From the NCBI GenBank assembly GCA_965112155.1, contig OZ218101.1: DNA of 64,000 bases, one strand, 5' to 3'. Under the pieces are notes generated by a model. That model was not told the DNA's origin, did no database searches, and saw only the letters and a program-made list of their open reading frames with translations. Shown here piece by piece: positions 27,705 through 64,000 of the stretch. Numbering within the stretch: the first letter of the stretch is position 1; the number at the start of each line of letters is the position of its first letter. This stretch comes from Podarcis liolepis (taxonomy: Eukaryota). A program made the position numbers and the translations under genes.

Positions 27705-27827
27705 TTATACTTTGGCTCCCTGGAAATCTTTTCCTTCTTCCTCTTCAATTGCACATTCTTCTTCTTCATCATCATCATATTTTACCTTTGTTTGAACCAG
27801 CACATTTTCTGTCTTGCTAATCCATTC
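27705..27827 (-). CDS. CRLF2: CRLF2 coding exon 8 (cytoplasmic tail, stop)
   Basis: aag|GAATGG acceptor; EWISKTENVLVQTKVKYDDDEEEECAIEEEEGKDFQGAKV* (human EWITDTQNV). Confidence 0.88.
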   Translation of the reverse strand, partial: EWISKTENVLVQTKVKYDDDEEEECAIEEEEGKDFQGAKV

Positions 27828-30800
27828 CTTTAAAAATGTGGACATCATCATTTGTTTAGGTAGAAATTTTTCCTACTAGATAAACTCGGCTGATGTAAAA
27901 CCACCTTACAGTTCATTAACACAAGCCAGAGGGCTGGCTACAATAGTCTGTAGTTTTCATTACAGTTTTTTTATAATATTATACTTCGTGCATTAAAATT
28001 CTGCACCAGATGTCATTTTTTTTCTTCCTTTCAAGATGCGGTTTTCTATTCCAGTATTTGGGTACCAATGTCTTAACATTTTCCTATAACTTTTCTAACA
28101 ACATTTATTTCTCCTAGTATGACTATGGGGTCTGTACTTAATTTATGTCCTGAAATCTTCTCAATTTTTATCACCTCAATCCAAAACATTTTTTTACAAC
28201 CTCTCTAAATATATCTAAAGTTTCTGTGGCTTTACACATTTGTAATGTTTACTTCTTTTTTGCAACTTATAAAAAGTACAAAATCTTGTAAAAAATAAAT
28301 AAATCTTTAACTTCAACATCCGTAAAGTATTTTGGACTTCCTTGAAAAATATTGATCCAGTGTTTTTGGTAATTGATAATTGCTTTATTAGGCTTAATAA
28401 AGATGTGAGTCCTTTGTTGCAGCAAGATAAAACCATGGTTCTAGATTTGCTTTCCTCTCAATTTAATACCCTCTGGGGTATTAAACATCACTAAATGTGC
28501 AGCTGGGAACACAAGAATGCATGCATATTTCAGAGGGATCAAACTAAGTTTGAGAAAACGAAAATCAGAATACAAGGGAAAGAAACCTGGAAAAAATATG
28601 ATGCTCTACCTGAAAGTTCCCATTATGATCGCTGAACAAATCAGAATATAGATGTTTGGGGTCTGGTACAGAAGGCATTAGGATCTTCCTAATTCTGTAA
28701 AAAAAAGAAATGAGTTAAATGATTACAATAAAAACCATAAAAGAAAAAGAAAAGCTGTGTTCAAAAAGTAGACATTAAATATAGGATCTTCAGCATTTAA
28801 ATAAAAGCAGAAACAGACATTTTATGCCCCAGATAATTTGAAGGGTCCTTAAAAACAAAGAAGGGAAAATAGTTTATTCTAAAAATTAATGGCACATATA
28901 GCAAATGGGATGGGGAATGGCACCTTTCAGCTGATGAAAGACAATATGCCAGGCTTAGAGCTTGAAGTCAGAGCCTAGTTCATTTAAAGGGATTTCATAG
29001 AACCAGGCATGCAAATTCCCTTACACTTAAAGTCAGACTGGGGACAAACTTGGCCCAAAAGTTCAGGATTTCACTCTCCCTCATCATGACCAGGACAAAC
29101 ATCTTTGAAAGTGAACAGGATTTTGGACCCCACATATATGAATCCACCACAATCTGATCATATGGCTCCATCACAAAATCATCATACTCAGTAATATTTT
29201 CTTACTAGTAAAGTGTCCATCTATTATGATAAACAGAGTCTGTTGAGTTTCTCCAGAGAGAGCACTGATTCCTTGCCAAGGAAGAATGGACAGCTAAAAG
29301 TTACATCCACTGCAAATGCAGTTCTAAAAAGAGGGGTTTTAGATACACGCACCCATAGAGCATGGTAAAAAGATGGGCAAGGGTGGTTACACTTAGAAGA
29401 AGAAGAAGAAGAAGAAGAGTTTGGATTTGATATCCCGCCTTTCACTCCCCTTCAGGAGTCTCAAAGCGGCTAACATTCTCCTTTCCCTTCCTCCCCCACA
29501 ACAAACACTCTGTGAGGTGAGTGGGGCTGAGAGACTTCACAGAAGTGTGACTGGCCCAAGGTCACCCAGCAGCTGCATGTGGAGGAGCGGAGACGCGAAC
29601 CCGGTTTCCCAGATTACGTGACTACCGCTCTTAACCACTACACCACACTGGCTCTCACTTAGGACTATAGGTAGCCACCTTAAACCGAGTCGGGCCTTTG
29701 AGCCAACTAGCTCAGCATTATTCATACTGACTGTCAGTCGCTCTCCAGGGTTCTGGATGGGAAGTCTCTCATACCTACCTGGAGATGCCAGGGATTGCTT
29801 GCCTCTCCCCCAACAGTAAACAGTGGCTCATGTTCTCCTGTCCTGTCCCCTTTATAAAGATCTGAGGAATGAAATCATTACCCCACTCTTACTTACCATC
29901 CCAGGCCGCCCATCTGAGGCCACATTGTTCTTTCTTTTATCAGATCAAAATGATCAGACAACAGCAAAGGTTGCTAGGTTTATCGAGGGTGCAATGAGAT
30001 TAAGGGCCGCTATCTGAATGATAATCTTGGTCATTTGATTGCCCTCTTTACCCATTGCTGTCTTTTTTATTTGTATATATTTTATTTGTATATATTGCTT
30101 GTTTTATGTTGCTATGGCCGTTGGCTAATGCGAATAAAGTTTCCTGATCTATCTCTCCCCCAACACATGCAGCTGCAATGCCCCGATCGGTTGGCATGTG
30201 AAGGACTCTAAGCACACACATCAGTATTCACACGAAGCCCCTTCACACATTGGCCAAAGTGTGGAGGCAGGCCTTCTCCAACTATTGGTGGTGAGGCTAG
30301 CCAAGATGGTTTCACGATGCTCCTCATGCATTCTTTTATGAGCCCAATCCTTAATTTTATCCAGGATGAGTGAAGGGAAGCCACTCCATATTCTGATTGG
30401 CTAGAAGACTTTACATAAACATCCTGTACCACCTTGTGACTATTATGTTACTTGTTGGCCAGAGGGCTTCCATTGAATCTTCTCTAGAGTTCCACCCTTT
30501 GTCGACGCCCCTTTCTTTGCCTTCAGGCTCAGCTCCTGCCTATCCAACCTGTCCATTCTTACCTACACACAAAAAACTTCACACAGCTTCTCCGGTAAGG
30601 ATTTACACAGTAAATCCTGAAGACATAGTTGGCCCCACTCTGACTCAGATCCCATGCATTCATTCTCTACTATTCTCAAAATTATAAACCTGGAAGACCC
30701 ACATCATATAGTGTATATAGCAAATTCCAAACATTCCATCCCATAATCTGTAATATGGGAGTAAAATTCCTGGGGGCGGGGGAGTAAACTGCTGAAGGTC

Positions 30801-33800
30801 TATCTGCCACACCTTGATCATCTTTATCTCCAACAGCCAAGATGCAATGGATAAGTGCAGTTCATCCTTTCTCAAAATGCACACTGTACCCATTAGATCC
30901 CTGAAATGTGTAGGCCTTCCCGCCACAAATATTGTTCTGTCATTTTGATCATTTTGATCAAGGGTTTGTGAGTGCACAAAGCAGCATTTACCTTTCCCAT
31001 CTGCAAACGCACAACAGAAGGGCAAATATTACCAGGACGCCAGCCATCACCAAAGTCAAAGGGATTACTGTAATTGATTTGGGTTCAGAGACATCTATAT
31101 CACAGGAATCTTTGAGGAATGACAAAAAGAAAAAAGTTCAAAGTGTTTTCCAGTATATTTGAAAAAAGAAACATCAGATTCTTTAAAGCATATTTTGGCC
31201 AACTCTTTCTTTCGAAAAGCAATTATTAAAAAATGGAATAATATATACTATTAATCTTTAGGCCACCATTCTTTTAAGCTTCTACATTTCACAATAATGT
31301 GGAATTTTGTGTTGTCCACTGAAATACACTTCTGCTAGGATGAAAGAATACAAGAATACCGGTATGAGATTTTTCTGCTTTGTGAATAAAAATTAGCTCT
31401 TTATATTGTCATTTAGCTCTTTATATTGTCATTTATATAACTAACCTTCTTCGTTCCAACAGAAAGTGTGACTATACTGGAATAGGAAATATAGTGTCAT
31501 GTACATGTGCTGATGCCTGCTAATGAATGCTTTTAAAGGAATATATTATAACAAAATGTTGTCTGGAGAGAATATCAACTGAAATTCATTTAAAGTCCTG
31601 TGTCCAATTCTCTGCTGTTTCCCAGTTGTGAAATGGGCCACTGGGATGTCACTGAAAACAGGTCCCTGTGTTGACAAATCACCCTCAGTGCTGTAGCATT
31701 TGGAAATAAGGCTTGGGACCGTTATGGGAGAACTCTGCTCAGTTTGGATCTTGACTTTTATAGTCACTTACTGGGGTTGATGGGGATTGTAGATCCACAA
31801 TATGTGATGAATCAAAGTTTCCCTCCCTAAAGCGTGCCCCACTTCCGACGCCCTTCCCCAAAACACACCCTGAAATGGTAAGGTGGCATGGTTTCGCTGG
31901 AGTTGTCTGTGCAAAACCTCCCAGCCCCTAGAATACTAAATGGCAACTTTCCAGTGGAGAACTACATTTCCCAGACTCCTCAGTGCCTGGAAAAAAATCA
32001 TTGAAGGGATTTTGGCATTGCCCTGTTATCACTGCTAATTTGGGAGTGGGGGGATTTGACAGCAGGGCAGGGGAGGGTTAGTTGTTGGTTCTTAAACAAT
32101 TTAAAATCAAATAAAATAGTGGATTTGTTGTGTTATGGTGACTGCGGAGTATAAATAAAATGATGATGATGATGATGATGATGATGATAAACTTTAATTG
32201 TGCAAACCTAAAACTTATGTGCTTGAATCTGTACTGCAGAAGAGTGGCAGTCTGGGGGCACCTTGTATATAAGATAGTATACCCTGAACACTAAATAAAT
32301 GACAAGAAGTAGGTCTACATGTTAGCATTATCTAGAAATAGAAGTTTCAGAAAGAGGATTTACAGTAGCAGTGTATTTTATGTTATTTTTACCTACAGAG
32401 CTGCCATTTTTCCAATGTGTTTCTGCTCCCCATTCACTGGAATAAGCAAATACACTGCAAATGTGATTCAGCCTGAATCGAAAGGAATAGCATTTCGCAG
32501 GATCAAATCCTTGGTCTTTAATCTCACAACATTCTTGGTCCCTAGACTGAACAGCAAGAGTACCAGTCATTAATAATTTTGTTCACTGTATATTTTCTAG
32601 GCTATCCTAATAGGTTTTCATTAGGCATTAGGTTTTCATCTTACCTCCCTTTGTATCATATTTTGTTCTTTATTTTTTCCCTCATTTCTTATCTCAGGGT
32701 TATAGCCTGTGCTTGCCTTGCACGGAGTAGACCCATTGAAATCAATGGACATGATGAACTTAGTTTGATGCAACCCTTAGTTCATTATTCTGGCAATGCT
32801 TTGAAAGAAAGAAGCTTGTACACCATGAGGAAGTAATCAACATATGAATTAGAACAATGAAGTAGCAACTTGGGGATTTCCCCAGCTTTCTTGCATATAA
32901 AGTCCCCAAGGAATTATCAGATCTTTAGTTGCCTAAACACAGCTACAGTGGTGCCTCGCAAGACGAAATTAATTCGTTCCGCGAGTTTTTTCGTCTAGCG
33001 AATTTTTCGTCTTGCGAAGCACGGTGTCGGAAAAGTTTTGGAAAAGCTTCAAAAATCGCCAAAAACCTCAAAAAAGGCCACCACACCGCGTTCTATGAGT
33101 TGCTCCTCGAAGTCAAGTCGCAACTGTATTAAGGGTGTTAAGAAAAAGGAAACAAACTTGCAAAAAACGCAAGACGTTTTCGTCTTGCGAAGCAAGCCCA
33201 TAGGGAAATTCGTCTTGCGAAGCAGCTCAAAAACCGCAAAACCCTTTCGTCTAGCGAGTTTTTCGTCTTGCGAGGCATTCGTCTTGCGGGGCACCACTGT
33301 ACTTAAACACAGTTTGTGAAATTAAGTTCCACTCAGATAATTGGGACTGTGTGTCAAAATACACAGATGAGGGGGATGTGAGCAACAGTCCACTGGCAAT
33401 CAATTTAGAGTGCACTGTGATGTCATTGCATAACCGCCAACATTTCTCCAATGAGAATTTTTGTTATTTATACTCCACCCATCTGACTGGGTTGCCCCAG
33501 CCACTCTGAGTGGCTTCAAACAGATATAAAAACATAATAAAACATTAAACATTTAAAAACTTTCCTATACAATGGTACCTCGGGTTAAGTACTTAATTCG
33601 TTCTGGAGGTCCGTTCTTAACCTGAAACTGTTCTTAACCTGAAGCACCACTTTAGCTAATGGGGCCTCCTGCTGCCGCCATGCCGCTGGAGCACGATTTC
33701 TGTTCTCACCCTGAAGCAAAGTCCTTAAGGTACTATTTCTGGGTTAGCGGAGTCTGTAACCTGAAGTGTATGTAACCTGAAGCGTATGTAACCCGAGGTA

Positions 33801-35874
33801 CCACTGTACAGGGCTGCCTTCAGATGTCTTCTAAAGGTTGTATCCCATTGGATCAGGAGTCACATAACTCCATACCCTCCAACATTTCTCCGGTGAAAAT
33901 AGGGATGTCCAGGATCTAAACAGAAACCGTGACGGCTTCTGTAAATCTGGGCCTGTCTCTGGAAAATAGGGACATTTGGAGAGTCTATCCTTGCTCAGAT
34001 ACCATATTTTTCATTCCATAAGACGCACTTGACTACAAGACGCACAAGACGCACCACAAGACGCACCTAGTTTTTGGAGGAGGAAAACAAGAAAAAAAAT
34101 ATTCTGAATCTCATAAGCCAGAACACCAAGGGGGATCGCTGCACAGTGAAAGCAGCAATCCCTCTTGCTGTTCTGGCTTCTGGGATAGCTGCGCAGCCTG
34201 CATTCGCTCCATAAGACGCACACACATTTCCCCTTACTTTTAAGGAGGGAAAAAGTGAGTCTTATAGAGCAAAAAATACGGTAATTGTTTTCCCTGCATT
34301 CTGTGTCTTGCATAAGTTCCAAGTTGAAACCAATATCAACTAGCCAACAGTAAAGTTTACAAGGTTGAGGCATGAAATATCAGGTGCCAAACTGTGGCAA
34401 ATGCAGGAGATTTGATCTGCACAATAATCAGCCCACTTTCCACAGCTGGGCCTCAGCGGTCCATTTGCAATTCTGGACATCTCAGCTTTGCCAGGCTTCA
34501 AGGCCTTTTTTTTTTGCTGCTGGCAACCCAAGATGATGAGTTTCAAATTCATCGATTCAAGACTATGTTGATCTGGTGGAAAACTCCTAACAAAAAACAC
34601 CCACATTTATTTCTGCACTGCAAAAGAAAAAGTCCCTTTCCAGGTTTCCATTCTGCAACGCAAAGCTGCACTTATCTACCCACCTGCCAATCTTTGTCAA
34701 GTTGGCTTTTGTACTGAAGTTCAAAGCGAAAACAATGTTCCTTGTCAACTCCCTTGCACTGCACAGTTACTTTGTCATCTGCCCATTGGAAAGTAACGTG
34801 TTCAGGTGGGTTGGGCTTCACTGGTGAAGATAACATTAATACACTCAATTACACAGTCGAGCTACAAAATGTTTTAATTGAACATATTGTACTTGTTAGC
34901 ATCTCATGATTGAAGCCTGCTCAAATAACAACAAAATATGAAATCACATAAGCTATCACTCAACTAATAACTGCTACGGCATGTTGTTGCATGCTATATA
35001 AGGGTAAATATGTGGCGAGAACACTTTTAAATGCAGTCAGATAGCAAAAGCTACTGCATACTGAGAATCAAATGCTGTTGTGTGTGATAGTTATAAACTG
35101 ATTCCTGGGGATTCCTGGGTTCTTTGAAAGCATGAAAGGCAGTCCCTCATTGAAAAGATGAGTGAGAGAACAGAAGGTTCCTGGAAAGACACTTTGTCCC
35201 CGTCATAGATTTTCCCCCCAATATGGTAGTCGTATTTGTCACAGTGAAACTCCAAAGCATTCTGTGTTAACTGAGTGTGTGCCTTAGAACATTAATCAGA
35301 ATCCTCTACAACACTGAATTCCTAGGCAGAGATTGATGTGGAAAGGTAGAAACAGCAGAACAGCTCTCCGTACTATGAAAAACAAGGTACTACTGCATAT
35401 AAATGGCATCAAAAATGGTAAAAAATTGAAATTAGGCAGCATTGGGGAAAGAAGGAGAAGGAGAAGGAGAAGGGGGAAGGAGAAGAAGTAGTAGTAAAGG
35501 ACCCCTGGATGGTTAAGTCCAGTCAAAGGTGACTATGGGGTTGCGGCGCTCATCTCACTTTCAGGCCAAGGGAGCCGGCGTTTGTCCACAGACAGCTTTC
35601 TGGATTATGTGGCCAGCATGACTAAACCACTTCTGGCACAATGGAACACCGTGATGGAAGCCAGAGCACACAGAAATTCCGATTACCTTCCCGCCACAGC
35701 AGTACCTATTTATTTACCGGTACTTTCACTGGCGTGCTTTCAAACTGCCAGGGTGGCAGGAGCTGAGACAGAGCATCGGGAGCTCACCCCGTCGCGGGGA
35801 TTTGAACAGCTGACCTTCTGATCGGCAAGCCCAAGAGGCTGTGATTTAGACCACAGCATCACCCATGTCCCATT

Positions 35875-35917
<43 letters not shown>

Positions 35918-38900
35918 CAGATATTTACTAAGCAGAATTTGAAGAAGTCAAATTGCTGTTGCTTCCCTTTTTTTTTCTTTTGTAATCCTAGTGAGGCACT
36001 GACACCTGAAAAGATTACTGCCAGAGTGATAATAGTTGTTAACTTACACAAATTGCTGCTCTCTTGTTCATCAAAGTAAGCCTCCTCTGTCTGATTTGGA
36101 TTCCTAATGTAAATGTGCAGATAACTCCCTTCAGTAGGAAATAGACACCCACTGTTGTATCCTTGGTCATGCAAATATTCAATGCACTGCTTCTCTTCTT
36201 GTTCATCAAACCTGCAATTGAAATAATCATACTCAATAAGATGGCAAAAATCTTTTCCATTGAAAATCAGGATATTTGGAAATGCTTTAAAGGGGATAAT
36301 CCTTGCCTAGCCCTCTGCACTCTAGAGCAGATTCCTGTCCTGCCAGGTCCTGTCCATGAAATGTAAGATACTTTTATTTTTATTTTATTTTATTTTATTT
36401 AAATAATAGAATGCAGTAGTGTTTAGTTGGCCTCCTTTGAAACACTTTTTCCAAAAAGCAAGGCAATTGACAGGATTTGACAACTACAAGTCACGTGTTG
36501 TTCCTTTGAGGTAGGGACAACATGATTTCCAACATCTATTTAATTTCCACCACTTCAATATTAACAGCTTCACTCTACAACAGTTCACAGTTTTAAATAA
36601 ATAAAGTTATTGTTTTGGATATTTACAATTCTGAGAGTTCAGCCAGCACAAAGATGCTTGTCTTCTACAGTAACAGGGCTCATCTGCTGCTAAGTTATCA
36701 AAAGACAGTGCTTACATCTAGAGCAAGAAGAGTGAATAGCAAGGTCACTGCAAGAAGTCTTGCCTGTTCCAAGGTAGCCTCACTCTGCTGGTTCTGCAGC
36801 TTCAATGGGCAACTTGCCAGAGAGCATGAAAAGCCCCACCAGCCAGGAGAGAGGGGTGTTGTGTGTGACATATTCCAGCAGCTCAGCCATTTATTCTTGT
36901 ACTTTTTGCACTGTCTGGAGGCTCTATATTCCACTCAGTGGCTTTAGATACCACCGACTATCCTTCAGGAGTGACTGTTCGAATTAGGGATGGGTGGCAC
37001 CACTTTGCGGTAGTTCCAGTCCTACTTGGATGGTCATTCCCAGAAGTTGTTGCTTGGGGAATGCTTTTAACCCCCTGGAACCTTCAGTCTGGGGTTCCAC
37101 AGGACTCAATCTTACCCCCTGCATTGTTTAACATCTACTGTACATGAAACTGCTGGGTGGGGTTATCTGGAGGTTTGGAGTATGTTGTCAGCAGTATACT
37201 GATGACACTCAGTTCTATTTCTCCTTTACATCTGCAGGTGAGGCAGTGGAAGTGCTGGACCAGTGTCTTGCCTCAGTAGTGGACTGGATGAGAGCCAACA
37301 AACTGAAGCTCAATCCAGATACGATTGAGGCACTGTTAGTGGGTTGTTCCTTAGACTGGATGGGTGAGAGATTGCCTGCTGTTGATGGGGTTACACTTCC
37401 TCTCAAGGAGCAGGTTCATAGCTTGGGGGCACTCCTGGATCCTTTGTTGTTGCTCGAGGCTCAGGTGGCCTCAGTGGTCCAGAGTGCCTTCCATCTGCTT
37501 TGGCTGCTGGCCCAGCTATGCCCCTGTCTGGACAGGGATAGCCTAACTACTGTTGTCTATGCTCTGGAACCTCAAGGTTCGATTACTGCAATGCGTTATA
37601 CATAGGGCTGCCTCTGGAGATGGTTCAGAAACTTCAGCTGGTGCAGAATTCAGTGGCCAGGTTACTCACCGGAGCAAGATGGTTTGAGCATATTACACCG
37701 AGCCTCACATGCTACAAGAAAGTCCAGTGAAACCAACAGGCACATTTAGAATTGGCCACAAGAACTGGCCATAGGTTGTAGGTTTTTAAAAGTGTTGAGG
37801 ATACAGCTTTCTCCCAACAACCAAACAGAAAAGCTATTTGTGGCCTCCAAACAATATGGAATGGACAGTGAATATGTGCAATAAGAAGGAAGCCAGATCA
37901 ATGTTCTCACCAGCTTGAGTTCAGAATATAAATATAAAATCTTATCTATCTCATGCTTTAGTTCCTTTGGATAAAAGGGAGTGAAAGGAAAGGGAAAGGG
38001 GGGGGGGTGCATTTATAGACCAATTTGTTTGAAAATTCCCAGCATTCAAACCTAGAAATCCAAAGAAAGTCTGTTTGCCAGTACTTACTTATAAGACATC
38101 GTCATGTTCCTGCCTGGAAAATTTTTTTTTGCATGCCATGAAATCTCCATCCTCTTACCATTGAGATTCTGTATTTCGTATTCTGGGCAACCATCTAGCA
38201 AAAACAAAGGGTTGTAATTGTTTAAAATAATCTGCAAAATAAATGGCTATCAGTCTCATCCAAGTTAGATCTTCTAAATATACATGTTTCTGCTGCACCT
38301 CTCAGTACTAAAAAGGAGAAACTTTGGGCTTGGATTTATCGTATAAGGCTAGAAAATAACCAAGCAAGCTTAAGTGCATATGCTGGACAACTTGCATACA
38401 TTAGACCACCCAGAAAAGGGTCAAGTACTTCACTAGGTAATAGTAATTACCATTTGCCAAAAGCTCTTTGCTTTATTTCATTCCCACCACAGCAGAAAAG
38501 GTCTCCTTTTTTGGCACTGCACTTTCCATGCTCCTCTTTCTCTAGCCTTGAGGGACTTCCAAGGTATTTAGTGCCATTGATGTAACATTTTCACACAATA
38601 TTATTTGACAGCTCAAGGTTGATATTGCTTAATACAATAAGAATGTCCAAGCATCTTCTGCTGAGAGATTATTCCTCCCTGTCCCTGCTAGAATGAATGC
38701 TCAGGTCCAAATGCGAGTTGTCTTAAATGGCAACACCAAAGAGAAGCCTATTCTGCTGAAGCATGGAGATTAAGAGGAGAGTTTCTAGGTTGTGTGTGAA
38801 TATATCTGAGAGCTCTGTTTCTGTATCATTACCTGCTAAGACGTCTTCAGAACCATTAAATTGATTGATGGGGTATAGACCTTGAAAACAAAGCAAATAA

Positions 38901-39663
38901 TAAGACTATGAAAGGAAGAATGGCAAAAAATCCTGCACTGCAGATGAAAAGCATGGGGGGGGGGAATCCATGTAATTTTGTACAGTATTAACTAGCAGAT
39001 CATTATTTCCCATCATAATCGTGATTTTTAAATGGTAAGTTGTTTTTTTCTTCTAGAATTCATTTAAAAGAAAAAAGAATAACCAGACCATGGATATAAC
39101 ATTAAATTACATTTATTGAACTACTTCCAGAACACAAAAGACACAAATTCCCATGGCTTTTAGTTATAAGTAATGCTGCTTAGAATTTTTAATGCAAAAA
39201 AAAATCCCACCCCAAAACCAAGTAATAAGAAAACACTTAATTTATTTAACATTTTTTAAGAAAAATCTTTGTTGCATGTTACAGATCTCTGTAGTTGTAT
39301 TGAGATCTTCACCTTACGTAACTATTGCATAACTATTGTGTTCTGTCCTGAAAGTTGCAATATATACTATACTGTTTGAGCTTACTTTATACCGAACATT
39401 ATGAATTTTGCCTCTGACATTTAGTGGTACAAAGACTTGGTTCAAATAAACCTTTACAATTGATTTAGCTCTAAATTTCATTCAAGTCTTTGTAATTTTT
39501 GTACATTATAAAGTGAATGGTTGCTAATACTGAGTTGTTAATACTGGTATGTGTGCTAAAAATTCATATTGTCAGATTTTAACTTACATGGTGCCCATGA
39601 CTGAGAAACCCACAGGAGGATGCAGAGCAGAACAGCAGCAGAGGACTTAAGACTCAACCCCAT
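27705..39663 (-). CDS. CRLF2: Cytokine receptor-like factor 2 (TSLP receptor), 8 coding exons, 963 nt, 320 aa
   Basis: Exons 39663-39588, 38194-38089, 36211-36048, 34820-34684, 32546-32393, 31109-30992, 28694-28610 and 27827-27705. All introns are GT-AG and phase-compatible (1,2,1,0,1,2,0). The product has a signal peptide, QC..YL...GYNSGCL, LKPNPP, ELQYKS..D.DWQ, KCYSFRFR, a TM helix, Box1 LMPSVPDPK and GNFQEWI, all recognisable from human CRLF2. It lies next to a CSF2RA-like gene. Confidence 0.95.
28610..28694 (-). CDS. CRLF2: CRLF2 coding exon 7 (Box1)
   Basis: 85 nt; IRKILMPSVPDPKHLYSDLFSDHNGNFQ; poly-pyrimidine acceptor and CAG|gtagag donor. Confidence 0.95.
29397..29656 (-). mobile_element. 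tRNA-derived SINE, Squam3-type, (CTT)n tail
   Basis: Reverse complement starts GAGAGCCAGTGTGGTGTAGTGGTTAAGAG (A box) and has a B-box-like GGTTCGCGTCTCC. (GAA)n on the plus strand. Flanking repeat CACTTAG. Confidence 0.85.
29816..30152 (+). mobile_element. Non-LTR retrotransposon 3' end, probably RTE-X
   Basis: HVLLSCPLYKDLR zinc-knuckle end, AATAAA and short (ATCT) tail. 13-bp TSD CTCTCCCCCAACA at 29803-29815 and 30153-30165. Clade assignment is by motif only. Confidence 0.75.
30992..31109 (-). CDS. CRLF2: CRLF2 coding exon 6 (transmembrane)
   Basis: 118 nt; DSCDIDVSEPKSITVIPLTLVMAGVLVIFALLLCVCRWER; AAG|gtaaat donor. Confidence 0.95.
32393..32546 (-). CDS. CRLF2: CRLF2 coding exon 5 (FNIII D2, degenerate WSXWS)
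   Basis: 154 nt; SRDQECCEIKDQGFDPAKCYSFRFRLNHICSVFAYSSEWGAETHWKNGSSV. Confidence 0.95.
32946..33299. mobile_element. Tc1/mariner-type MITE
   Basis: TIRs CAGTGGTGCCTCGCAAGACGAA / TTCGTCTTGCGGGGCACCACTG, TA flanks, multiple internal TTCGTCTTGCGA repeats. CpG-rich, so probably young. Confidence 0.92.
33570..33806. mobile_element. Tc1/mariner-type MITE, same family as 21231-21456, opposite orientation, inside an L2/CR1-group LINE tail (~33465-33840)
   Basis: TIRs CAATGGTACCTCGGGTTA / TAACCCGAGGTACCACTG with TA flanks. Confidence 0.9.
34002..34281. mobile_element. Tc1/mariner (pogo/Tigger-like) MITE
   Basis: TA-CCATATTTTT...AAAAATACGG-TA termini and internal AAGACGCAC repeats. Confidence 0.8.
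34684..34820 (-). CDS. CRLF2: CRLF2 coding exon 4
   Basis: 137 nt; LKPNPPEHVTFQWADDKVTVQCKGVDKEHCFRFELQYKSQLDKDWQ. Confidence 0.95.
35494..35871 (-). mobile_element. Sauria SINE, followed by an (AAC)n microsatellite at ~35875-35917
   Basis: Homologous to 7528-7877. Confidence 0.88.
36048..36211 (-). CDS. CRLF2: CRLF2 coding exon 3
   Basis: 164 nt; FDEQEEKQCIEYLHDQGYNSGCLFPTEGSYLHIYIRNPNQTEEAYFDEQESSNL; gtaagt donor. Confidence 0.95.
36990..37710 (+). mobile_element. L2/CR1-group LINE reverse transcriptase fragment (degenerate)
   Basis: GVPQDSILPPALFNIY, QQYTDDTQFY (YADD equivalent) and WMRANKLKLNPD, with frameshifts. Lies in CRLF2 intron 2. Confidence 0.9.
38089..38194 (-). CDS. CRLF2: CRLF2 coding exon 2
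   Basis: 106 nt; GCPEYEIQNLNGKRMEISWHAKKNFPGRNMTMSYK; ttttgctag acceptor and gtaagt donor. Confidence 0.9.
39588..39663 (-). CDS. CRLF2: CRLF2 coding exon 1 (signal peptide)
   Basis: 76 nt; MGLSLKSSAAVLLCILLWVSQSWAP; phase-1 gtaagt donor. Confidence 0.9.
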
Positions 39664-45078: not shown

Positions 45079-46129
45079 TTATAAGGAAAGCATTAGGTGA
45101 AGTATTAACTCAGTTGGGTTATTTATTGTGCGTGTTATTCTTCATGAACCTTAAAATCACCATCAGCAAAACATTTTGGCAAGGACCTCTCTAGGGTTCA
45201 GTGGGCCTGTTTAGGGTGAATTATTCTTCATGCACCATCAAAAACATAAGGAAGTCACCAGAAGCAAAAGTAAGTGCTCCATTATACTTCCTTGTTCAAT
45301 GGGATTAGAAGCGAAAAAGGAAATTCATGAAAGACTGATGCAACACTCCTCATGAGAACAACATATATACCCTCGCTTTCTCAGTAAAGCACACTTTGCA
45401 AGTGCACTACCAAAGCTTCTCTCAACTACACATCTCTCTGAGCCCATATGAGGAGGAGGAGGTAAGAATAACACCCCACTCAGCAGAAAAGGGGCTACAT
45501 TCACAACCTTTACGACAAGCTTGGTGGAGAAGGGGTGGGCAGCAGCAAGAGTAGTTCCCGTAACCCCACCACCCAATCCCTATCTGCTAACCTTCCATAT
45601 GCTAAGTGCCCAATCCCTCCATCAGCATGGCAGCAGTCACCAGTCCTGTCCCAGCCCAGGTCTTTGCCACTCTCAATTCCTCATCATCAAAGTTCAACCC
45701 CCCCTTCAAACTTCCATTGTTTTGGCCCTCCAGAATATTCCCACAGACCCAAACAGGTGCTTCAATCTGTTCTGTCAGTCTCAACATCCCTGCCATCCTT
45801 CTGGCCTCAAACATCCACACATCCACCAATCCTCTAAGCTGCCAAAACTGTTCAGTTGCAAGTTCTACACTCTCTGTACCCTTAGATTGCAGCAGTTTCA
45901 TGTTGGGGAAATGCTTTCAGGTTCATTTGGTCCTTGCTTGTGGGGGGGAAGGTTACTGCCATGTTCTATGAGTATTTCTTTCCAAAGCTTCATTGCTCAC
46001 ATGAGCAGTCCCCATCAATGTATTTATTTATATTCAAATATTTATAAATGACATTTTCATATAAAAGATAGCAAGCACAGCAGAATACTAGGGGGAAAAA
46101 CACATGATAAGAAAACTGCCTGGTGAATA

Positions 46130-46183
46130 ATCTATCATCTGTCTATCTGTCTATCTGTCTATCTGTCTATCTATCTACCTATC
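46130..46183. repeat. (TATC/TGTC)n microsatellite
   Basis: Seen directly. Confidence 0.9.
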
Positions 46184-46642: not shown

Positions 46643-46730
46643 ATGGTAGCCACTCTAGGATTTGCTGACACAGTTCGGCTCATTGTTCTGTTGTACTCTA
46701 TTTTCTACAGAACCTTTGGACAGGAGGAGG
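46643..46730 (+). CDS. CSF2RA-like exon: signal peptide
   Basis: 88 nt; [29 protein letters not shown]; Kozak-like AGCATGG, AGG|gtaagt phase-1 donor, possible upstream acceptor at 46628. Confidence 0.75.
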
Positions 46731-49700
46731 GTAAGTATATATTTTCAAGTTGATTAGCAGGTTATATTGCAGATATTAATATTGCAGAGATCAAAGTGGC
46801 TGGGTGCATAAGAACTGACTACTTTTGGAAATAAACATTGTCCAATCCCGTAAAAATATTATTCAAAGCTTACTTGCAGAAATTTTTCGAGAACAGAACA
46901 AAATACATCAAATGATACATCCAAAACATCCGTGCAATGTCTTGTGCTGTCCAGCACAGGCTCAGCATCTTAGAAATGAAAGATAATTCCAAAAATCCAA
47001 ACTGTATCTCTGTTCCACATTCCAGCCCCCAGTGGCCTTAGCCTGTGCATTTCTTTTGGTGAGCCATCTACATCCTTTTGTTCTTTGTGGCATCCAGAGA
47101 AAGGCTAAAAGCCACCATTCTTTCAAGATGGTGATTTTACAACTCAGTAACTTCATCACATGCTCAAAGGTTACATTAGAGTAACAGGATACATTAGAGA
47201 AACAGAAAACACTCAGTGGGTAATTATTGTCCCATTTAGGAGCTTAGAGTACTTTAGAAAACTTGGGGGAAATCCAAATTAGAGATACACATTTATCCAT
47301 TCTCCATGTTAAACTATCATTAATACACGGGCATTTGCTCATTTCTGTGTAAATAAAACCAATTACTGTATACTTAACAGATGATACCGGTATACAGGTA
47401 TATGAGTCATTCATTCCTATACCAGCATGTTTGAGTACAGAACTGCTGCCAGGGTATGCATAACTCTGGTGACAAGGGGTGTGATATGGGGTTAGCATTC
47501 TGACCTCATATTGATTGAATTTAGAACACCCTAGGGTGAACATTGGTAATGGAACTTGTAGAGAAACACCACTTGACCTTAAAAAGGAATCACTTTCATA
47601 GAATCATAGAAATGTAGAGTTTGAAGGGACACCGAGGGTCGTCTAGTACAGCCCCCTGCAATGCAGGAATAAGAGCTGAAGAATCCCTGACAGATGGTCA
47701 TTCCATCTCTGGTTAAATGTCTCCAGTGAAAAAGAGTCCACCACCTTCCAAGGTAGTCCATTCTATTGTCCAACAGCTCTTGCCATCAGAAAGTTCTTCT
47801 TCATGTTTAGTCGAACCTCATTCAAACTTATAGGATGAGCACATTAACTTAAGGTTACCAGATTTTTTTCAATGAATCTAGGGGCACTTTTCAACCAATG
47901 GATTTTGTATGGGTACTGATTTGTAAATCTGGTGACTGTCCTTGGGAAACGGGGATGTCTGGTAACCTTACATTAACTCTTCTCAGAAGAACCCATGCAG
48001 GCAGCGGCGGAGCAAGCCGATCGGGTGCCTGGGGTGGCGAGCGTGCCCTGTACCCAGCCGGGACAGGACGCTCTGCAGGGCCTCCAAGGAGTCTGCCTGC
48101 CTCCTCCCACTCAGCTGCCCTACAGCTGAGGGGGAGGCAGTGGGCAGACTGTTTGGGCCGAGCGGAGCCTGCAGGTGCCCAAGCCACCGTGTCACTTCCA
48201 GGAGAGACGTGTGGCTCGGGAGCGCTGCAGGCCCTGCAGTGAATGCCACCCAGCATTTTGTCACCCCCTTCAATGGTGACACCTGGGCGGATCGCACCTA
48301 CCTGCACCCCCCTTCCTTCACCCCTGCATGCAGCTACTCAGACTCAGAACCAAACTCATGTACATGGATGACACATATATGAGATGATGATAAAAGTACT
48401 CTGAGCATTTCAATGCATGTTACTAAACATGATCTTTCCTAATTTTTCTCCCCAGGACTGGAAGGGACATCAGCTGAAAATTTATCCTGTGTCATTTACA
48501 CAGTTCATGTTACCTCAATGGATTGCACTTGGGATGCTGGCAGGAATGCCCCTAATGACGTCCAGTATTTTCTCAACTTGATATATTTGTAATTCATTTT
48601 CATTTGTTAAACGGGGGTGGGGAAGGGAATGGTTAGAGTATGCTACTCCTGGTTGGATTTTTAACAAAATATTTTTGCATGCAGCGAAAACGATGGAGAA
48701 AGCATTGAATGTCCCCAATACAAAAATAATGAACTTGGAAGACATGTTGGGTGCCATTTTCCTAATATGAAAGTTCCTGAGAATCATATTACCCTCCAGG
48801 TGACTGGCTCAAGCAAAGAATCACCAATTCAGACTTTGGATCACCAAGCCTGGCCTTTCGATTATGGTAAGAGAGGGTGGAGTATATTGGTTTACTTTTT
48901 TCTGCCAGCAGTACTAGAAATTTTGATATAGCTATAAATCTGGGATGGGAAAATGTGGCCTCAATATTAGATTCTGACTCCCATCGCCACTGATCACAGG
49001 TTAGGTTGGCTGGGGCTGCTGGGAGTCCAACCACATCTGGAGAGTCAGATGTCGTGCAACCCTTTAATAGGCCTTTACTTTAAAATGCTTGTAAAATTAT
49101 CATTAAACAACCTCAAAAACATATCTGACTGCTTCTACATCACAGCTTTTCAGTGGCAGATACACCCACCCCCATCCTGTACCCTTGCATGACCTCACAC
49201 CATAACATTCCTGGCTATAAACCTGGCCACACTCACCCATAGTGTATGTGAATCTAAAATATTTAAGAGAGGGATGGAAGACTGACCACTCTAATGCCCT
49301 TGTAATCTCTACCGTCAAGTAAAAGATGGGTTATTTCATTCCAGAAAAACTTGCCCCACCGCAATTTATCACTGTGAATTGTCGTGAACTGCTATTGTAT
49401 TGTAAAGTAGAATGGAAACATCCTCCAACTGCTACTACAAATGCAGATTACTGTTTTAAGTACCAGATAAAGGTAAGAGGCCATTGTGGTTCTCTTCGTT
49501 GAATTGTTTTTTGTCATCTTTGCTCGTCCCATGTGCATATTTCAATTAGACATCCAAAGGGGGGGGGGATGACCATTTCACATTCTGAAATTGTTATGAG
49601 TTGAATAGAATCCAAAATGCAGCAGTCTGATTGGTCCGCAGGAGCCACCCAATCCAGCTCCAGGTGGAAGTGAATCCACAACCTGATTGGCCTACAGGAG

Positions 49701-52700
49701 AATCCTGGAATTAGCCAATCACATGCAGCCCATTGTGTAAATAATGTATATAAAGCAGATATTTGGGGGGAACTTTCATTCCTCCTCACCACTATGAGCT
49801 GAATAAAGAGCATGAAATCCACTCTTGGCTCCGAGTATATTTCAGAAATATGTCCAGCTTTCAAATGTATATAGAATTCAGTTTTGCAGAGGACCCAGTA
49901 CTGCTACTCTGGGATTGGTGAGGCACATGAGGAATCAACAAGATTCAACAAGATGGATGGGCTAAGAGAAAAGGGTCTAGCTGCAGTGTAGAATTACCAT
50001 CAGCAAAATGCCCCAAGCCAATCCTGTTTGTCATGTCAAACAGTGGAGCAAAGAAAGGATTGGGAGGAAAGTTAAACCATCTACCCACAAGTAAGTCACA
50101 GACACATGTAATCAATTGCTGTTGACAACTTTTGCCTTCCTTGCTGATTAAAGTATCCAGCTGAATTTGTGAAATCAAGCATACTTTGAAAAAACCACAA
50201 AGAAAAATTGACACCAGTACCAACTAAAAATGTTACCTTTTTCCCTTAAGGATGTACTGAGAAATGGAATTATAACAGTAAGTATTGTTACTCTATATAA
50301 ACACTTACACATGGGGGAATGAATTTAGGAATGAGACAGCCACGTGTATGTTGCTGTGGGTTACATACTGGAAGAAAAATGGGGTATAAATGCGCGGTAT
50401 AGTAAAATTTGGTCACAACGTTCTGAAATAGGGCCAGTCTAGAAGTTCTATCTAGGTGTCTCCCTGTTTGTTTTGTTTTTTTAATCTACTTTGCTTTCTG
50501 ATGTCTTCTAATCTGGGTTAAAGGGATGCGGGTGGTGCTGTGGGTTAAAACCACAGAGCCTAGGACTTGCCAATCAGAAGGTCTGTGGTTCAAATCCCCA
50601 CAACAGGGTGAGCTCCCGTTGCTTGGTCCCTGCTCCTGCCAACCTAGCAGTTTGAAAGCATGTCAAAGTGCAAGTAGATAAATAGGCGCCGCTCCGGTGG
50701 GAAGGTAAACGGCATTTCCATGTGTTGCTCTGGTTCACCAGAAGTGGCTTAGTCATGCTGGCCACATGACCCGGAAGCTGTACCCCGGCCCCCTCGGCCA
50801 ATAAAATGAGATGAGCACCACAACCCCAGAGTCAGTCAGGACTGCACCTAATGGTCAAGGGTCCCTTTGTTGTTGTTGTTTAGTCATTTAGTCGTGTTCG
50901 ACTTTTCGTGACCCCATGGACCAGACCATGCCAGGCACTTCTGTTTTCCACTGCCTCCCGCAGTTTGGTCAGACTCATGTTTGTAGCTTCAAGAACACTG
51001 TCCAACCATCTCGTCCTCTGTCGTCCCCTTCTCCTTGTGCCCTCCATCTTTTCCAACATCAGGGTCTTTTCCAGGGAGTCTTCTCTTCTCATGAGGTGGC
51101 CAAAGTATTGGAGCCTCAGCTTCATGATCTGTCCTTCCAGTGAGCACTCAGGGCTAATTTCCTTAAGAATGGATGCGTTTGATCTTCTTGCAGTCCATGG
51201 GACTCTCAAGAGTCTCCTCCAGCACCATAATTCAAAAGCATCAATTCTTCGTCGATCAGCCTTCTTTATGGTCCAGCTCTCACTTCCATACATCACTACT
51301 GGGAAAACCATGGCTTTAACTATACGGATCCCTTTACCTTTACCTAAAGGGTCCCTTTACCTTTACCTAATCTGGGTTAATGATAGATGGCTGGTGAAAG
51401 AGGCAGAGAAGGGAAAATCTCCCAGGGTGGGAGACTGGGAACATATAGAGGGAATCTCCCAGGTAAGAGCTGGGAGGGTCCACCCCCTTCTGTGTGAGAC
51501 AAAGGTTAAGATATGCTTATGAGAGAGGCCTTTGTATCCTCCACCCATTTCTATCTCTATTATTTCTATTATTTCTATTATTTTCTATTTCTATTTCTAT
51601 TTCTATTATTTCTATTTCTATTATTTCTATTTCATTTCCCTTTTTTCTTTTTATTCAGATTAGTTTGCTTTTTAATGTATGGTATAATGAAACATTTTAA
51701 TAAAAATTTCATGGCAAACCCCCTCCCCACATGAAGGCTTGGGAGAATCACAGAAGTAAGGCTGTGGACCATAGTTTGAATTGGCTATACATACTCAGGT
51801 AAATCTAGGAAGGACCACAGTTCTCCTCTCCCTTGCCCTTAAGACAAACATATTGTGACTTTTCTTGAGTTTCGACTTCTAATCTCTTAATAGTAGTTGT
51901 AAAACCGAAGAATTATTAATATCCTGCTACTGAGCATATTTACCTAAAAGGCAGCTATAGTGATTTTCCAAGGGGAAAGTATTTTCCTAGTGAGTGAATT
52001 AAGGCAGCAGCTTGTTGAATGCTTTTGCACAAGAGAAATAGCCGTCTTTACATTACACAGTGGAATTGGGTGGGCACCACTAATACTATTTAAAAAATCA
52101 AATCGTTCAATGCAAATTGGCATGTAACTTCACCTACAAAGGAATAAACCAGATTAATATCTTCCTTTTAAGAAAAAAACTGGGAAAACCTACCACTTGT
52201 TTCCGAAGGATAAAGAATACATCTTGAAGCTTCGTGCAGCTGGACAGTATTGCACTGTTGGAGAAGAATGGAGTGACTGGAGTGAACTAATTAAATTTGG
52301 TAAGGTTACAGATTTTTCTCTCTCCATGTTCTTCTTCCTTTGCCCTGATCTCTATCATACTGCCTAAGTGGCTAACTCAGGTTTGAGAAGTGCCTCTATC
52401 AGTTTGGGAAACAAGGCAATCGAAAATGGTTTTTTGCACATTAAACAACATCCTTGGTATTCAGAAATATATATGGGGTTTTTTTTTTAAAAAAATCATT
52501 GTTTAATAAACAAAAACAGCTTATTCTTCCAGTTTCCAAGATTTATGGAGACCTGTGTCAGGTATCAGGGAATCCGATCCCCCCACCCCCACGGTAGGCT
52601 GCCAGGAACAGATAGACAAAGAAAGTTCTTACCAATGTCTTTTATTCAATATTCACAGAGAGAGGCTTAGAAATGCAGCCTCTTGGAGTAATGGCATTGT

Positions 52701-53717
52701 TCCGAGTAATCTCCACCCCCTCTCTTCTCTCCTCAATCGTCAGCAGCAGCACCCACCCTACGGTAGCTGCTTAGGGCCATTTGCCTCCAAGCCCTTTGCT
52801 CTCCTACTTTCAATGTTCACCGGGTTCTGGGAGAAGGAGTGTCTGGAATGCTTTCTAGTAATAATGCGTCAGCCAGCTGTTCTGGCTCTGCCTCCTCCTC
52901 CTCCTCCTCTTCCTCTTCCTCTTCCATTATTCCCTAACTTTGCCCCTCATCTGTTTCTGAGCCGTTACCTTCCACAAACCACCGCTGTAAATCTATACTG
53001 GCTTCCTCTTCTCTGGAAGGTTCAGGAAGAGGGAGAAGCGGTCTCCACCATTCCTCCTCTGTCCAGTCCCTGACAACTTGATGCCAGTTGAGTCTACTTA
53101 CTTATTATTTATTTATTTCATGGAAAATATACACTGCTTGCTTGTAAATAAAACCTTAAATCAGTTCACACACACACACACACAAATATTTATTAAATTT
53201 TGATACCACCCTTCAGTCAAGGGTCACCGAGTGATATAAAAATATAAAATATAAAATATATAAACATAAAAATATGTAACATAGTAACAAAGACAGTTTA
53301 AAAGGCCATAGATTGTTTAATTAGCCAAAGGAATTTAGTTTGGTCACACAAAATCCGCTCCCAGTTAGTCAAAGCTTTCTTTATCTGAACAGTGTAATTT
53401 TGGACCAGAGGGTGAATCATTTTGTTGATCCTACTGTTTGGAGTCAGAAAATTTCAAATGGACAGTCCCCTTTAACTCCAATGGGATTATTCTAGGGTAC
53501 AAAGTTTAGAGCTTTCACTTTCCAATAGGTGAAGGCTGCAACGCTTACCTTACTTATATGAGAGCATTCCCCCTTGCTATTTTGTAACAGAACTTGATGT
53601 TTTGTAACAATTGTCACTGGATTTTCAGGATGCAGAAAGAAACCAGGAAAGAATACATACACCTGTGAAGAAAACAATGCTAAAAGATGGATCACATCAA
53701 CAAAATATTTACCATAG
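46643..53717 (+). CDS. CSF2RA: GM-CSF receptor alpha-like (CSF2RA/IL3RA family) gene, predicted secreted form of ~257 aa
   Basis: Exons 46643-46730, 48456-48588, 48685-48866, 49345-49472, 50251-50277 and 52173-52299 are all GT-AG, in phase and free of stops. A candidate last exon is 53629-53717. Motifs [36 protein letters not shown]...[19 protein letters not shown] and [11 protein letters not shown] match human CSF2RA. Family is certain; orthologue versus lineage-specific paralogue is not. Confidence 0.8.
47597..47812 (-). mobile_element. CR1 LINE 3' end
   Basis: CATAGAATCATAGAA tail followed by typical CR1 3' sequence. Confidence 0.8.
47851..47970. mobile_element. Short hAT-like MITE
   Basis: Inverted ends AAGGTTACCAGA / TCTGGTAACCTT. 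Near-identical flanks CATTAACT on both sides suggest an 8-bp TSD. Confidence 0.75.
48456..48588 (+). CDS. CSF2RA-like exon: cytokine-binding domain, first half
   Basis: 133 nt; [44 protein letters not shown]; strong acceptor, gtaatt donor. Confidence 0.93.
48685..48866 (+). CDS. CSF2RA-like exon: cytokine-binding domain, second half
   Basis: 182 nt; [60 protein letters not shown]; gtaaga donor. Confidence 0.93.
49345..49472 (+). CDS. CSF2RA-like exon: membrane-proximal FNIII, first half
   Basis: 128 nt; [43 protein letters not shown]; AAG|gtaaga donor. Confidence 0.93.
49586..49844 (+). mobile_element. ERV-type solo LTR
   Basis: TGAAAT...ATTTCA inverted termini, several CCAAT/ATTGG boxes, TATATAAA at ~49747 and AATAAA at 49802. 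No clear TSD. Confidence 0.7.
50251..50277 (+). CDS. CSF2RA-like 27-nt microexon
   Basis: cctttttcccttaag|GAT...ACA|gtaagt, phase 0-0, DVLRNGIIT. Sits where human CSF2RA has a short exon inside the second FNIII domain. Confidence 0.8.
50522..51366 (+). mobile_element. Sauria SINE carrying a nested BovB in its tail
   Basis: 14-bp TSD CTAATCTGGGTTAA at 50508-50521 and 51367-51380 encloses the SINE body, the BovB and the ACCTTT tail. Confidence 0.9.
50869..51328 (-). mobile_element. BovB LINE 3' fragment
   Basis: ORF 50880-51311. TSD TCCCTTT at 50862-50868 and 51329-51335. Confidence 0.95.
51548..51635. repeat. (TTTCTA/TTA)n simple repeat
   Basis: Seen directly. Confidence 0.9.
52173..52299 (+). 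CDS. CSF2RA-like exon: WSXWS exon
   Basis: 127 nt; [43 protein letters not shown]; phase-1 gtaagg donor. Confidence 0.93.
52556..53075 (-). mobile_element. Solo LTR (520 bp)
   Basis: TGTCAGG...CCTGACA inverted termini, 5-bp flanks ACCTG/ACTTG, AATAAA on the minus strand near 52645. Confidence 0.85.
53629..53717 (+). CDS. CSF2RA-like candidate terminal exon (hydrophilic, stop)
   Basis: ttttcag acceptor. In phase 1 it reads [29 protein letters not shown]. Unique AT-rich sequence follows, then AATAAA at 54011. No homology support. Confidence 0.45.
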
Positions 53718-54117
53718 TCATGCAAAGTCAAGAGTTGAAAACTTCTATGGAAACCTGAGACCTGAAGATATAGGGTGGCATACAAATTTATTAATAATAA
53801 GTCACTGAGATTTCTTGCTGCAAGTGGTGTTCATTAACTTATGTCCGAGTTCCATCGTGAAATGTATCAGGTTTAACAGTATGCCATAGAGCTCACAAGC
53901 AAATTTGTGATTCTTTCAGAAATATATTTCATATATTTTTGTACCATAATGGAAGATCTGTATCTTATAAAGTTTTCATTGTCTGTACAATGGATAACCA
54001 AGCAGCTACCAATAAAGAGATCAAGAGTTATGCAAACAAAATGTATCTGATGTTTCCCTCAGTGATTTGGAAAAGGGACAGGTTGAACTATTATATGATA
54101 CTCACTATTTTCCTTTA

Positions 54118-62342: not shown

Positions 62343-64000
62343 TATATACGGTAGACAGAAATATTCTTCAGCTTTAGCCACATGTTCCCCACTGTTTGAG
62401 TCACAGCTGTTTCCTATAATTTCTGCTGCTTCCCACAAAGAGGAAGAGGTCAGTTGGGGTCTATCCATCAATTGTGTAACTGTGTGGTACCACACTACCT
62501 GATGTTACGTTAATTTGGGCATGGGTTTTAATCCAGGGAGATCTCTCTAAACTCACGTTTAGAGTAGACACAGTGAAATCCATGGATTTGTTAGTTAATG
62601 AGTCTACTCTTAAATATGATTTAATTAGATCCAACCCTATAGTTATGGGAGCGGTTTATTATGCAAATCTGAATATTTTGTTAAAACAGCTCAGTCTTGT
62701 GGTACCTTATAAAACTTAGGACCAAAGTAGACACGAAGCAGGAGATCCTTATCTTCCCATGGGGTTTTTTGTGGGGTGTTAATAGCAGCTGTGGAAGATG
62801 GAGCTTATTCAGATTGGGACAATGACACTTCCAATTGAAATCATCCCTTTTCTATCGCCACCCAGCTTTTATGCACCACTCAGAACAAAACCTGCAGGTT
62901 CTCTACAGGTTGGCAATTTTATTGTGCCAAAGTAAACCTTTCTGTGTCTTAAGGGCAGCTTCAGAGGTCTTGCTAGTAGTCCAATTGGTAAGATCAATTA
63001 GATTGGTGAGCATGAGAGAAAGGAGCTATTCGGTGGTGTCCCCACAGTTATGAAACACCCTTCAAAGTTGTTCGTGTACAACTCCATCAGGACAGACTTT
63101 TAACCAGGCATTGGAAACCCACTCAGTACAAATACTATTGGCCTGTTTGGGTGAGTTGGGGTTCTATCTTATTATCTATCTATCCCCCCTATTTTTGGAG
63201 TTCGGCAAATCTTAGAATTCTTCCAAGCTTGCTGATACCTCTCTCTTGTGCATCAGCTACATAAGCAAAGGCTGAATATCAGAAATAAAGGGAATGGTGA
63301 CTAGATATGATACACGTCGTTTCTGTTGATTAGAATATTATTTTCCTGAGCATAACAGTGGAAATATCCTGGGTTGAGTTCCCAGTGGATATTCATTGCA
63401 GCCTCAGGAGCAAAACTGAAGCTCTCCCTCATGAAGTATACTATATTGACAGAAACTTGTTTGCACCTTCAGAACACCATGGTGACAACTGTCATTCAAC
63501 AAAAGAACACTCTGCAGCCCACAAGCTATTGTCTTTCCTGGGCTAAGAAGATGTAAAAATAGGAACTCCCCAAAAAGGAAACTTTTGGCTGACATTAAAG
63601 ACAGGAAGTGGTTGTTCTTAGTGAGGCAACTGTGACAACTGAGATGGCCTGTGATGAGAATTTCCTGAATTTCCCCATGTCTGTTACTTTAATTAGAAAA
63701 CTGTGGGTGTGAAGGCTTCAGACACTTTTCTCCAGGTCCCAAGGATCCTCAGAACACCAGGAGGTCTCTTATGTCCAGAAACCCTTGGTGAACCCCGCCC
63801 ATACACTGAATTTGGAGTTTTTAATCATCATATCATTTATGAACAAAAGCTTTTGACAATGATCTCTCTAGGAGATATATTTGTTCAGTGGGCCTGTACA
63901 TGGCGAATTCTTCTTCAGACAGTATCAAGAATATAAGGAAGGCATCAGAAAGGCCTTCAAGAGTAAGAGAAAGCATCCCACTACTTTGTTCTTTCTTATT

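Follow-up and report, generated by a model that had tools for sequence, protein, structure and literature searches.

Has a lizard receptor gene lost, in the genome itself, the N-terminal domain (NTD) that CSF2RA, IL3RA and IL5RA possess, and what kind of protein does such a gene encode? In mammals the NTD provides 34-64% of the cytokine contact area of the alpha chain and prevents its spontaneous pairing with beta-c, according to the accessible part of PMC5785977. The window studied here is a 64-kb stretch of Podarcis liolepis DNA (64,000 nucleotides, G000:C4:35836001-35900000; positions below use window numbering), in which a preliminary description had placed a CSF2RA-like gene without an NTD. 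We find that the loss is indeed genomic. It is not confined to this gene or to P. liolepis, being common to the annotated orthologs of other non-gecko squamates, and what the window contains is no membrane receptor gene. On its exon content this gene (gene A) is best described as a lacertid partial duplicate, without NTD, transmembrane or Box1 exons, of a lizard GM-CSF-receptor-alpha-like gene, whose membrane-anchored twin (gene B) is found immediately 3' of the window.

Gene A comprises six GT-AG exons (46643-52299), whose open frame of 228 codons ends shortly after the WSxWS motif, and a likely terminal exon. The start codon is that of the annotated Podarcis and Zootoca proteins, and the signal exon, which ends in phase 1, runs in frame into the first D2 exon (ATG at 46643; 46643-46730 joined to 48456-48588, with GT and AG ends), as had been proposed. 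The features of gene A are as follows.

45167..45511, + strand: non-coding stretch common to genes A and B, probably a promoter or 5' untranslated exon, with a GT donor near 45270
46643..46730, + strand: signal-peptide exon, 88 nt, phase 1, GT donor; aligns with the gecko signal peptide
46731..48455, + strand: first intron, 1,725 nt, the expected place of NTD exons, none of which is present; 47556-48330 repetitive
48456..48588, + strand: D2 exon 1, with the first cysteine pair; AG acceptor; Pfam IL6Ra-bind, E 1.2e-6
48685..48866, + strand: D2 exon 2, with the second cysteine pair; Pfam IL6Ra-bind, E 7.2e-7
49345..49472, + strand: D3 exon 1; contig record 6 of run X1 shows it spliced to later exons
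50251..50277, + strand: D3 micro-exon, 27 nt, of equal size in gene B; 27-letter gap between the mapped pieces of X1 record 6
52173..52299, + strand: D3 exon with the WSxWS motif, the last exon common to A and B; homology stops at 52432
53629..53717, + strand: likely terminal exon, with a short hydrophilic tail and a stop but no transmembrane helix; phase-compatible
54011..54016, + strand: AATAAA, candidate poly(A) signal of gene A, the sole AATAAA in 53700-54400

The D2-D3 module is present, and all its conserved cysteines, the WSxWS motif, the frame and the splice sites of six introns are intact. With the likely terminal exon, whose sequence is unique within 224 kb, the predicted product is 257 aa long; two annotated Podarcis proteins have the tail encoded by that exon at the beginning of their final 16 residues. 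A 469-nt repeat, ~94% identical to several copies, and several interspersed repeats of ~350 nt lie inside or after the gene (50867-51335, 50517-50868, 54114-54475, 60378-60722). In line with the label CSF2RA-like, the closest solved relative is the alpha chain of the GM-CSF receptor, which is the best match both in sequence (E 7e-27) and in fold (4rs1_B, TM 0.72, for an AlphaFold model of a gene A ortholog with pLDDT 87), and IL2RG chains are among the other fold matches.

The first intron contains no N in its 1,725 nt, in agreement with the preliminary description, and its 3' part is repetitive, as was also stated there: 692 of the 1,725 bases, all from 47556 to ~48330, match elsewhere in 1.16 Mb of DNA from the same genome, and the first 825 bases have no such match. 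Among 1,837 open AG..GT/GC candidate exons in this intron, none scored above 1.4 bits on an NTD profile built from 72 NTD-bearing homologs, and a profile search for NTDs in six frames of the 224 kb around the gene (9,953 segments) yielded no match at E<1. As a positive control, the profile without its gecko rows recovered 8/8 spiked gecko half-NTDs (E 7e-6 to 4e-3, 16.7-25.5 bits). In the first intron of gene B, the best of 587 open candidate exons reached 2.3 bits; Pfam IL3Ra_N found nothing over the cut-off genome-wide, and nothing at the gene A locus among the 15 candidates scored in a loose first-look search.

The preliminary description had allowed for a true signal exon further upstream, for example in or near the gap, which is a stretch of 229 N at 43857-44085. 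The signal exon of gene A aligns with the gecko signal peptide (52% identity, E 2e-4), which argues that the true start is not further upstream, and 45167-45511 is homologous to 63844-64194 upstream of gene B (66% DNA identity over 381 columns); together, these observations indicate that gene A appears to start downstream of the N stretch. With the signal exon correctly assigned and no NTD exons in the intron of either gene, the loss is genomic and not, as in the SP2 form of IL-3Ralpha, a choice of splicing. That NTD exons do exist, being too diverged to recognise, concealed in the run of N or left out of the main splice form, is extremely unlikely, and is largely refuted by these data: NTDs evolve fast and 229 N lie nearby, but the spiked gecko controls were detected, the signal exon comes only after these N, the two introns are just 1.7 and 1.26 kb long and gave at most 2.3 bits, and no isoform listed for 13 species carries an NTD. 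A similarity just 5' of 48456 (48330-48455), which could be taken for an NTD relic, was rejected, as it contains two stops and is at chance level, being equalled by 1.4%, 12% and 23% of 2,985 random windows for three queries.

How old the loss is can be judged from its distribution. In annotated proteins of 11/11 non-gecko squamate genera with a complete N-terminus (13 species: Podarcis (3 species), Lacerta, Zootoca, Rhineura, Varanus, Anolis, Python, Liasis, Candoia, Hemicordylus and Tiliqua), the signal peptide is followed directly by D2; partial models from Ophiophagus and Phrynocephalus, which are uninformative, were left out of the count. These NTD-less orthologs come from skinks, cordylids, amphisbaenians, lacertids, anoles, monitors, pythons and boas. 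Both geckos (Paroedura and Heteronotia) keep the domain, as ~108 extra residues between a homologous signal peptide and D2, which in Paroedura match Pfam IL3Ra_N (E 8e-9), and which in an AlphaFold model of the gecko protein have a pLDDT <50. One further, non-squamate homolog cluster, presumably crocodilian, also matches IL3Ra_N at that place.

A D2-D3 tree (31 rows, none of them CRLF2 or IL2RG) unites the squamates, including the NTD-bearing geckos (97/98), the non-gecko squamates (85/76), lacertids with Rhineura (100/98), and A with B (100/99). The absence of the domain from annotated orthologs in 11/11 non-gecko genera and its retention in 2/2 geckos point to one ancient loss; read against the accepted squamate species tree, the D2-D3 tree places this loss after the gecko split and the A/B duplication in the lacertid stem. 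NTD status outside P. liolepis is judged from gene models, the DNA having been searched in one genome, and the sample comprises neither dibamids nor tuatara. We therefore consider it very probable that the loss is both genomic and ancient, the NTD exons presumably having been deleted once, after geckos split from other squamates. Among the best 150 of 333 representatives, six family members of other lineages (P0087, P0088, P0113, P0120, P0121 and P0138) also join the signal peptide straight to D2; these may represent NTD losses of separate origin, products of splicing or receptors of another type, and such short proteins suggest that NTD-less forms may have arisen elsewhere.

The membrane receptor of this locus is encoded by gene B, which sits between gene A and a minus-strand gene that we take, from its motifs, to be SLC25A6.

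27700..39663 (ends approximate), - strand: CRLF2-like neighbour, serving as synteny marker; Pfam CRLF2_D1, E 7.7e-8, and CRLF2-like_D2, E 2e-12; signal, transmembrane and Box1 exons
63844..64000, + strand: start of the gene B upstream region, homologous to 45167-45511
65771-74281 (window numbering continued; G000:C4:35901771-35910281), + strand: gene B, nine coding exons beyond the window, encoding signal, D2, D3, transmembrane, Box1 and tail

The gene order is thus CRLF2 (-), A, B, SLC25A6 (-), and mammalian CSF2RA and IL3RA likewise lie between CRLF2 and SLC25A6. In locus and descent gene A is of the CSF2RA/IL3RA type, having these same flanks and falling in a clade with the gecko receptors (97/98). 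The CRLF2-like gene stands head-to-head with gene A, ~5.5 kb away. Gene B, whose first intron is 1,258 nt long, encodes an NTD-less, membrane-anchored protein of 311 aa that is identical to an annotated Podarcis muralis protein at 309/311 positions. DNA homology between A and B spans 45167-52432 only, ending before the transmembrane exon of B; A/B DNA comparison revealed no counterparts of B's transmembrane, Box1 and tail exons after gene A, and no transmembrane or Box1 exon was found following 52299. Two candidates for such exons were rejected, namely a Box1-like peptide at 52502-52561 (no in-frame acceptor, no match to the Box1 exon of B) and a hydrophobic stretch at 59165 (wrong phase, no homology). 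These findings suggest that the 5' part of the receptor gene was duplicated in the lacertid stem and would then have captured a new last exon, giving rise to gene A.

No third family member was seen within 224 kb, and genome searches with gecko and IL5RA proteins gave convincing matches only to A, B and an intronless IL13RA1-like gene; no full-length, NTD-bearing alternative receptor was found in the genome. The intronless gene (L032:1093-2292; G000:C14, ~30936084-30937283, +) has a 399-aa frame with signal peptide, Il13Ra_Ig (Pfam, E 1.2e-8), D2, D3, a transmembrane helix and Box1, and is probably a retrogene of IL13RA1 that has stayed intact; C21 (L039) carries an intron-containing IL13RA1-like exon.

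Transcript evidence differs for the two genes. The signal-to-D2 splice of gene B (GT..AG) is present in contigs of 2/4 runs (X1 and X14, both presumed to be RNA), which continue through the D3, transmembrane and Box1 exons; the short side of this junction measures 28 letters, below our 31-letter bridging rule. Contigs of X14 and X17 also span most of the first intron of B (L004:1856-3113; depth ~25 and ~13), the other B introns being mostly uncovered, which possibly reflects intron retention or an alternative start; an annotated 262-aa isoform begins inside D2. For gene A, the junction 46730-48456 was not seen in the four runs and exon coverage is near zero: raw reads of X8, X10 and X12 cover its exons almost nowhere, and the single X1 contig on the signal exon is unspliced. 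One of the four runs (X1) contains a 312-nt contig that joins D3 exon 1 to the WSxWS exon with 27 letters between them, and the last 30 letters of this contig exactly explain the depth of 0.57 in bin 53389-53695 (30 x 5.84 / 307), offering indirect support, through bin depth rather than a listed joint, for a splice to 53629.

Two other Podarcis annotations (P. lilfordi and another, which we take to be raffonei) contain transmembrane-less A proteins of 244 aa that share the start and tail found here and are identical at 234/244 and 236/244 positions. Models of gene A differ at the 3' end (257 aa here, then 244, 244, 182 in a third Podarcis and 146 aa in Zootoca), and no Lacerta model was present in the homolog cluster examined. 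It is very unlikely that A is instead a membrane isoform, made by splicing its exons on to the transmembrane exon of B or by read-through of a joint A/B locus: the phases would permit it, as both WSxWS exons end in phase 1, and in one X1 contig of B the first 22 nt of D2 exon 2 are A-like, but 19.5 kb and the whole promoter and ectodomain exons of B intervene, A has its own last exon and AATAAA, and two annotations end in that last exon.

Given that gene A has a signal peptide and lacks transmembrane and Box1 exons, its product is likely secreted, and we consider it probable, on sequence grounds, that A is both translated and secreted. Comparison with B yields a pairwise dN/dS of 0.67 (bootstrap 0.48-0.96; 0.95 in the signal exon), a value whose upper bound is near 1 and which may come from the branch of B. 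Synonymous divergence is uneven (dS 0.18 in D2, 0.62 in D3 and 0.55 in the signal exon), and the D2 exons with their intervening intron (48430-48968 vs 67088-67635, L004) are 85% identical, compared to 66-72% in the other shared blocks. The low D2 dS and the high identity of this block lead us to infer that gene conversion between A and B has likely homogenised D2 since the duplication. D3, in contrast, is just 56% identical.

These data also bear on the possibility that the NTD loss is real and old but that A is a transcribed, slowly decaying partial duplicate without function, only B being of importance. We regard this as rather unlikely, although the annotated 3' ends vary from 146 to 257 aa, read support for A is very low, dN/dS reaches 0.96 at its upper bound and 0.95 in the signal exon, and gene conversion alone could keep D2 intact. 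Against decay, frame, cysteines, WSxWS motif and the splice sites of six introns have survived a D3 dS of 0.62 to B, the A orthologs of two other Podarcis are 96-97% identical, and A has a spliced D3 contig; in a crude neutral simulation with an assumed indel rate, the gene remained intact in 0/2,000 runs at each of three divergences.

IL5RA has been listed among squamate gene losses by segmental deletion, as reported in the accessible part of PMC13005343. A gap-free stretch of 140 kb that includes TRNT1 and contactin exons yielded no IL5RA, either to 187 receptor queries or to a family profile able to detect 10 exons of A and B at E<0.001, and an IL5RA query of the whole genome found none. 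The genome does contain a beta-c exon (E 7e-17). Searched genome-wide, Pfam GM_CSF and IL5 produced nothing but unconvincing matches, and a candidate GM-CSF-like ligand gene was located by synteny, as the one convincing cytokine candidate in a first-exon scan of the P4HA2-ACSL6 interval (62 kb).

G000:C2:56439699-56444336 (loci L126-L127), - strand: GM-CSF-like cytokine gene, with phase-0 exons, a TATA box and an AU-rich 3' end

The last exon of this gene matches Pfam IL5 weakly (E 0.029), an element in its promoter is presumably CLE0 of GM-CSF, and no protein record matching its exon 3 was found. In place of the usual single micro-exon, it has two candidates, both of 30 nt and phase 0. The same scan recovered two IL-4/13-like genes in the TH2 locus, whose similar first exons are convergent and lie 3' of RAD50 (G000:C2:55951451 (+) and 55968220 (-); named by position). 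The RAD50-IRF1 interval (41.9 kb, G000:C2:56008300-56050200), where IL5 is expected, contains no cytokine-like first exon in this heuristic scan, on which the ligand count rests, so that further ligands may exist. IL-5 is described as well conserved in reptiles in the accessible part of PMC13753702, which our scan of the expected IL5 position did not confirm in the P. liolepis genome; IL5 was possibly lost along with IL5RA. Given the absence of IL5RA, the presence of beta-c and a single GM-CSF-like ligand gene, B is likely, from the genes present, the only membrane alpha chain for beta-c.

The consequences of such an arrangement can be gauged from IL-3Ralpha SP2, the NTD-less form. SP2 shows no measurable cytokine binding alone and, together with beta-c, a KD of 7.6 nM vs 0.48 nM; it has lower potency and associates with beta-c independently of ligand, cytokine still being needed to signal (accessible part of PMC5785977). 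In B, the SP2 architecture is a fixed property of the gene, and no other membrane alpha chain is likely to exist, so that a pre-formed B/beta-c complex is to be expected. B may act as SP2 does, associating with beta-c beforehand and being activated by cytokine; D2-D3 or the cytokine has probably undergone compensating changes.

Secreted A could then compete for the cytokine of B or for beta-c, damping the signal. The reading that we favour with some confidence is that gene A, a partial duplicate without NTD, transmembrane and Box1 exons, encodes a likely secreted two-domain protein that tunes signalling via its membrane twin B; whether this tuning is negative we put at about an even chance. 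The failure of SP2 to bind alone argues against a free cytokine sink, unless the affinity of D2-D3 has risen, and so leaves standing both slow decay, rather unlikely as stated, and a positive role for A, which is less likely still.

In mammals, the alpha-chain tail is required for beta-c signalling. This counts against A being a secreted positive co-receptor, which would dock on beta-c without an anchor or carry the cytokine and thereby enable cells without B to respond, much as in trans-signalling: A has neither cytoplasmic tail nor Box1, and its D3, which would face beta-c, shares just 56% identity with that of B. Although the D2 of A has been kept similar to that of B, and deletion of the NTD makes IL-3Ralpha bind beta-c constitutively (accessible part of PMC5785977), we consider such a role quite improbable.

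Beyond the favoured account of A as a secreted modulator, a broader scenario can be offered only tentatively: non-gecko squamates would have a minimal beta-c system without IL5RA, in which a single alpha chain devoid of the NTD is paired constitutively with beta-c and, in this lizard, is served by one GM-CSF-like cytokine, and lacertids would then have evolved a separate secreted copy, matched to the receptor by conversion, that replaces the braking role of the NTD. A vertebrate lineage apparently lacking the NTD in its only membrane alpha chain for beta-c represents a natural experiment; comparing receptors and their ligands between geckos and lacertids would reveal in what way D2-D3, the cytokine or beta-c made up for the loss, and whether dimers formed in advance can be a viable default.

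Database names of the NTD-less genes vary between CSF2RA-like and IL5RA-like, the latter although IL5RA is lost, and our results correct this annotation. Short NTD-less proteins are already in public annotations, and the loss of IL5RA in squamates is already published (accessible part of PMC13005343). The accessible parts of PMC8226699, PMC7340708, PMC4690019 and PMC13753702 contain nothing on squamate receptor structure, and a search of the openly available full-text literature turned up no paper that describes NTD loss in squamates.

How, then, do A and B compare with known receptors? A shares with CSF2RA, IL3RA and IL5RA the D2-D3 cytokine-binding module, the WSxWS motif, the D3 micro-exon and the position of the locus, but those receptors have an NTD, which A and B lack, and A is also without transmembrane or cytoplasmic part; because of these absences, we do not class it as a canonical alpha chain. 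As products of a lacertid duplication, A and B are not one-to-one counterparts of CSF2RA and IL3RA. CRLF2 and IL2RG resemble them in having two fibronectin domains without an NTD, but A and B group with the NTD-bearing gecko receptors and match GM-CSFRalpha best, and CRLF2 is a separate neighbour. Soluble forms of GM-CSFRalpha and IL-5Ralpha are made by splicing. Like A, soluble cytokine-receptor forms consist of a signal peptide and ectodomain with a short hydrophilic tail and no anchor; unlike these splice products, A is a separate gene that arose by partial duplication, is NTD-less and has a D2 apparently homogenised with that of its membrane twin. The closest parallel to B is IL-3Ralpha SP2, which passes from the signal peptide straight to D2 and has the same string of domains (accessible part of PMC5785977). 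SP2, however, is an alternative splice form made beside the full-length receptor, whereas in A and B the NTD exons are gone from the genome, and by this analogy gene B is likely the genomically fixed counterpart of that mammalian splice form.
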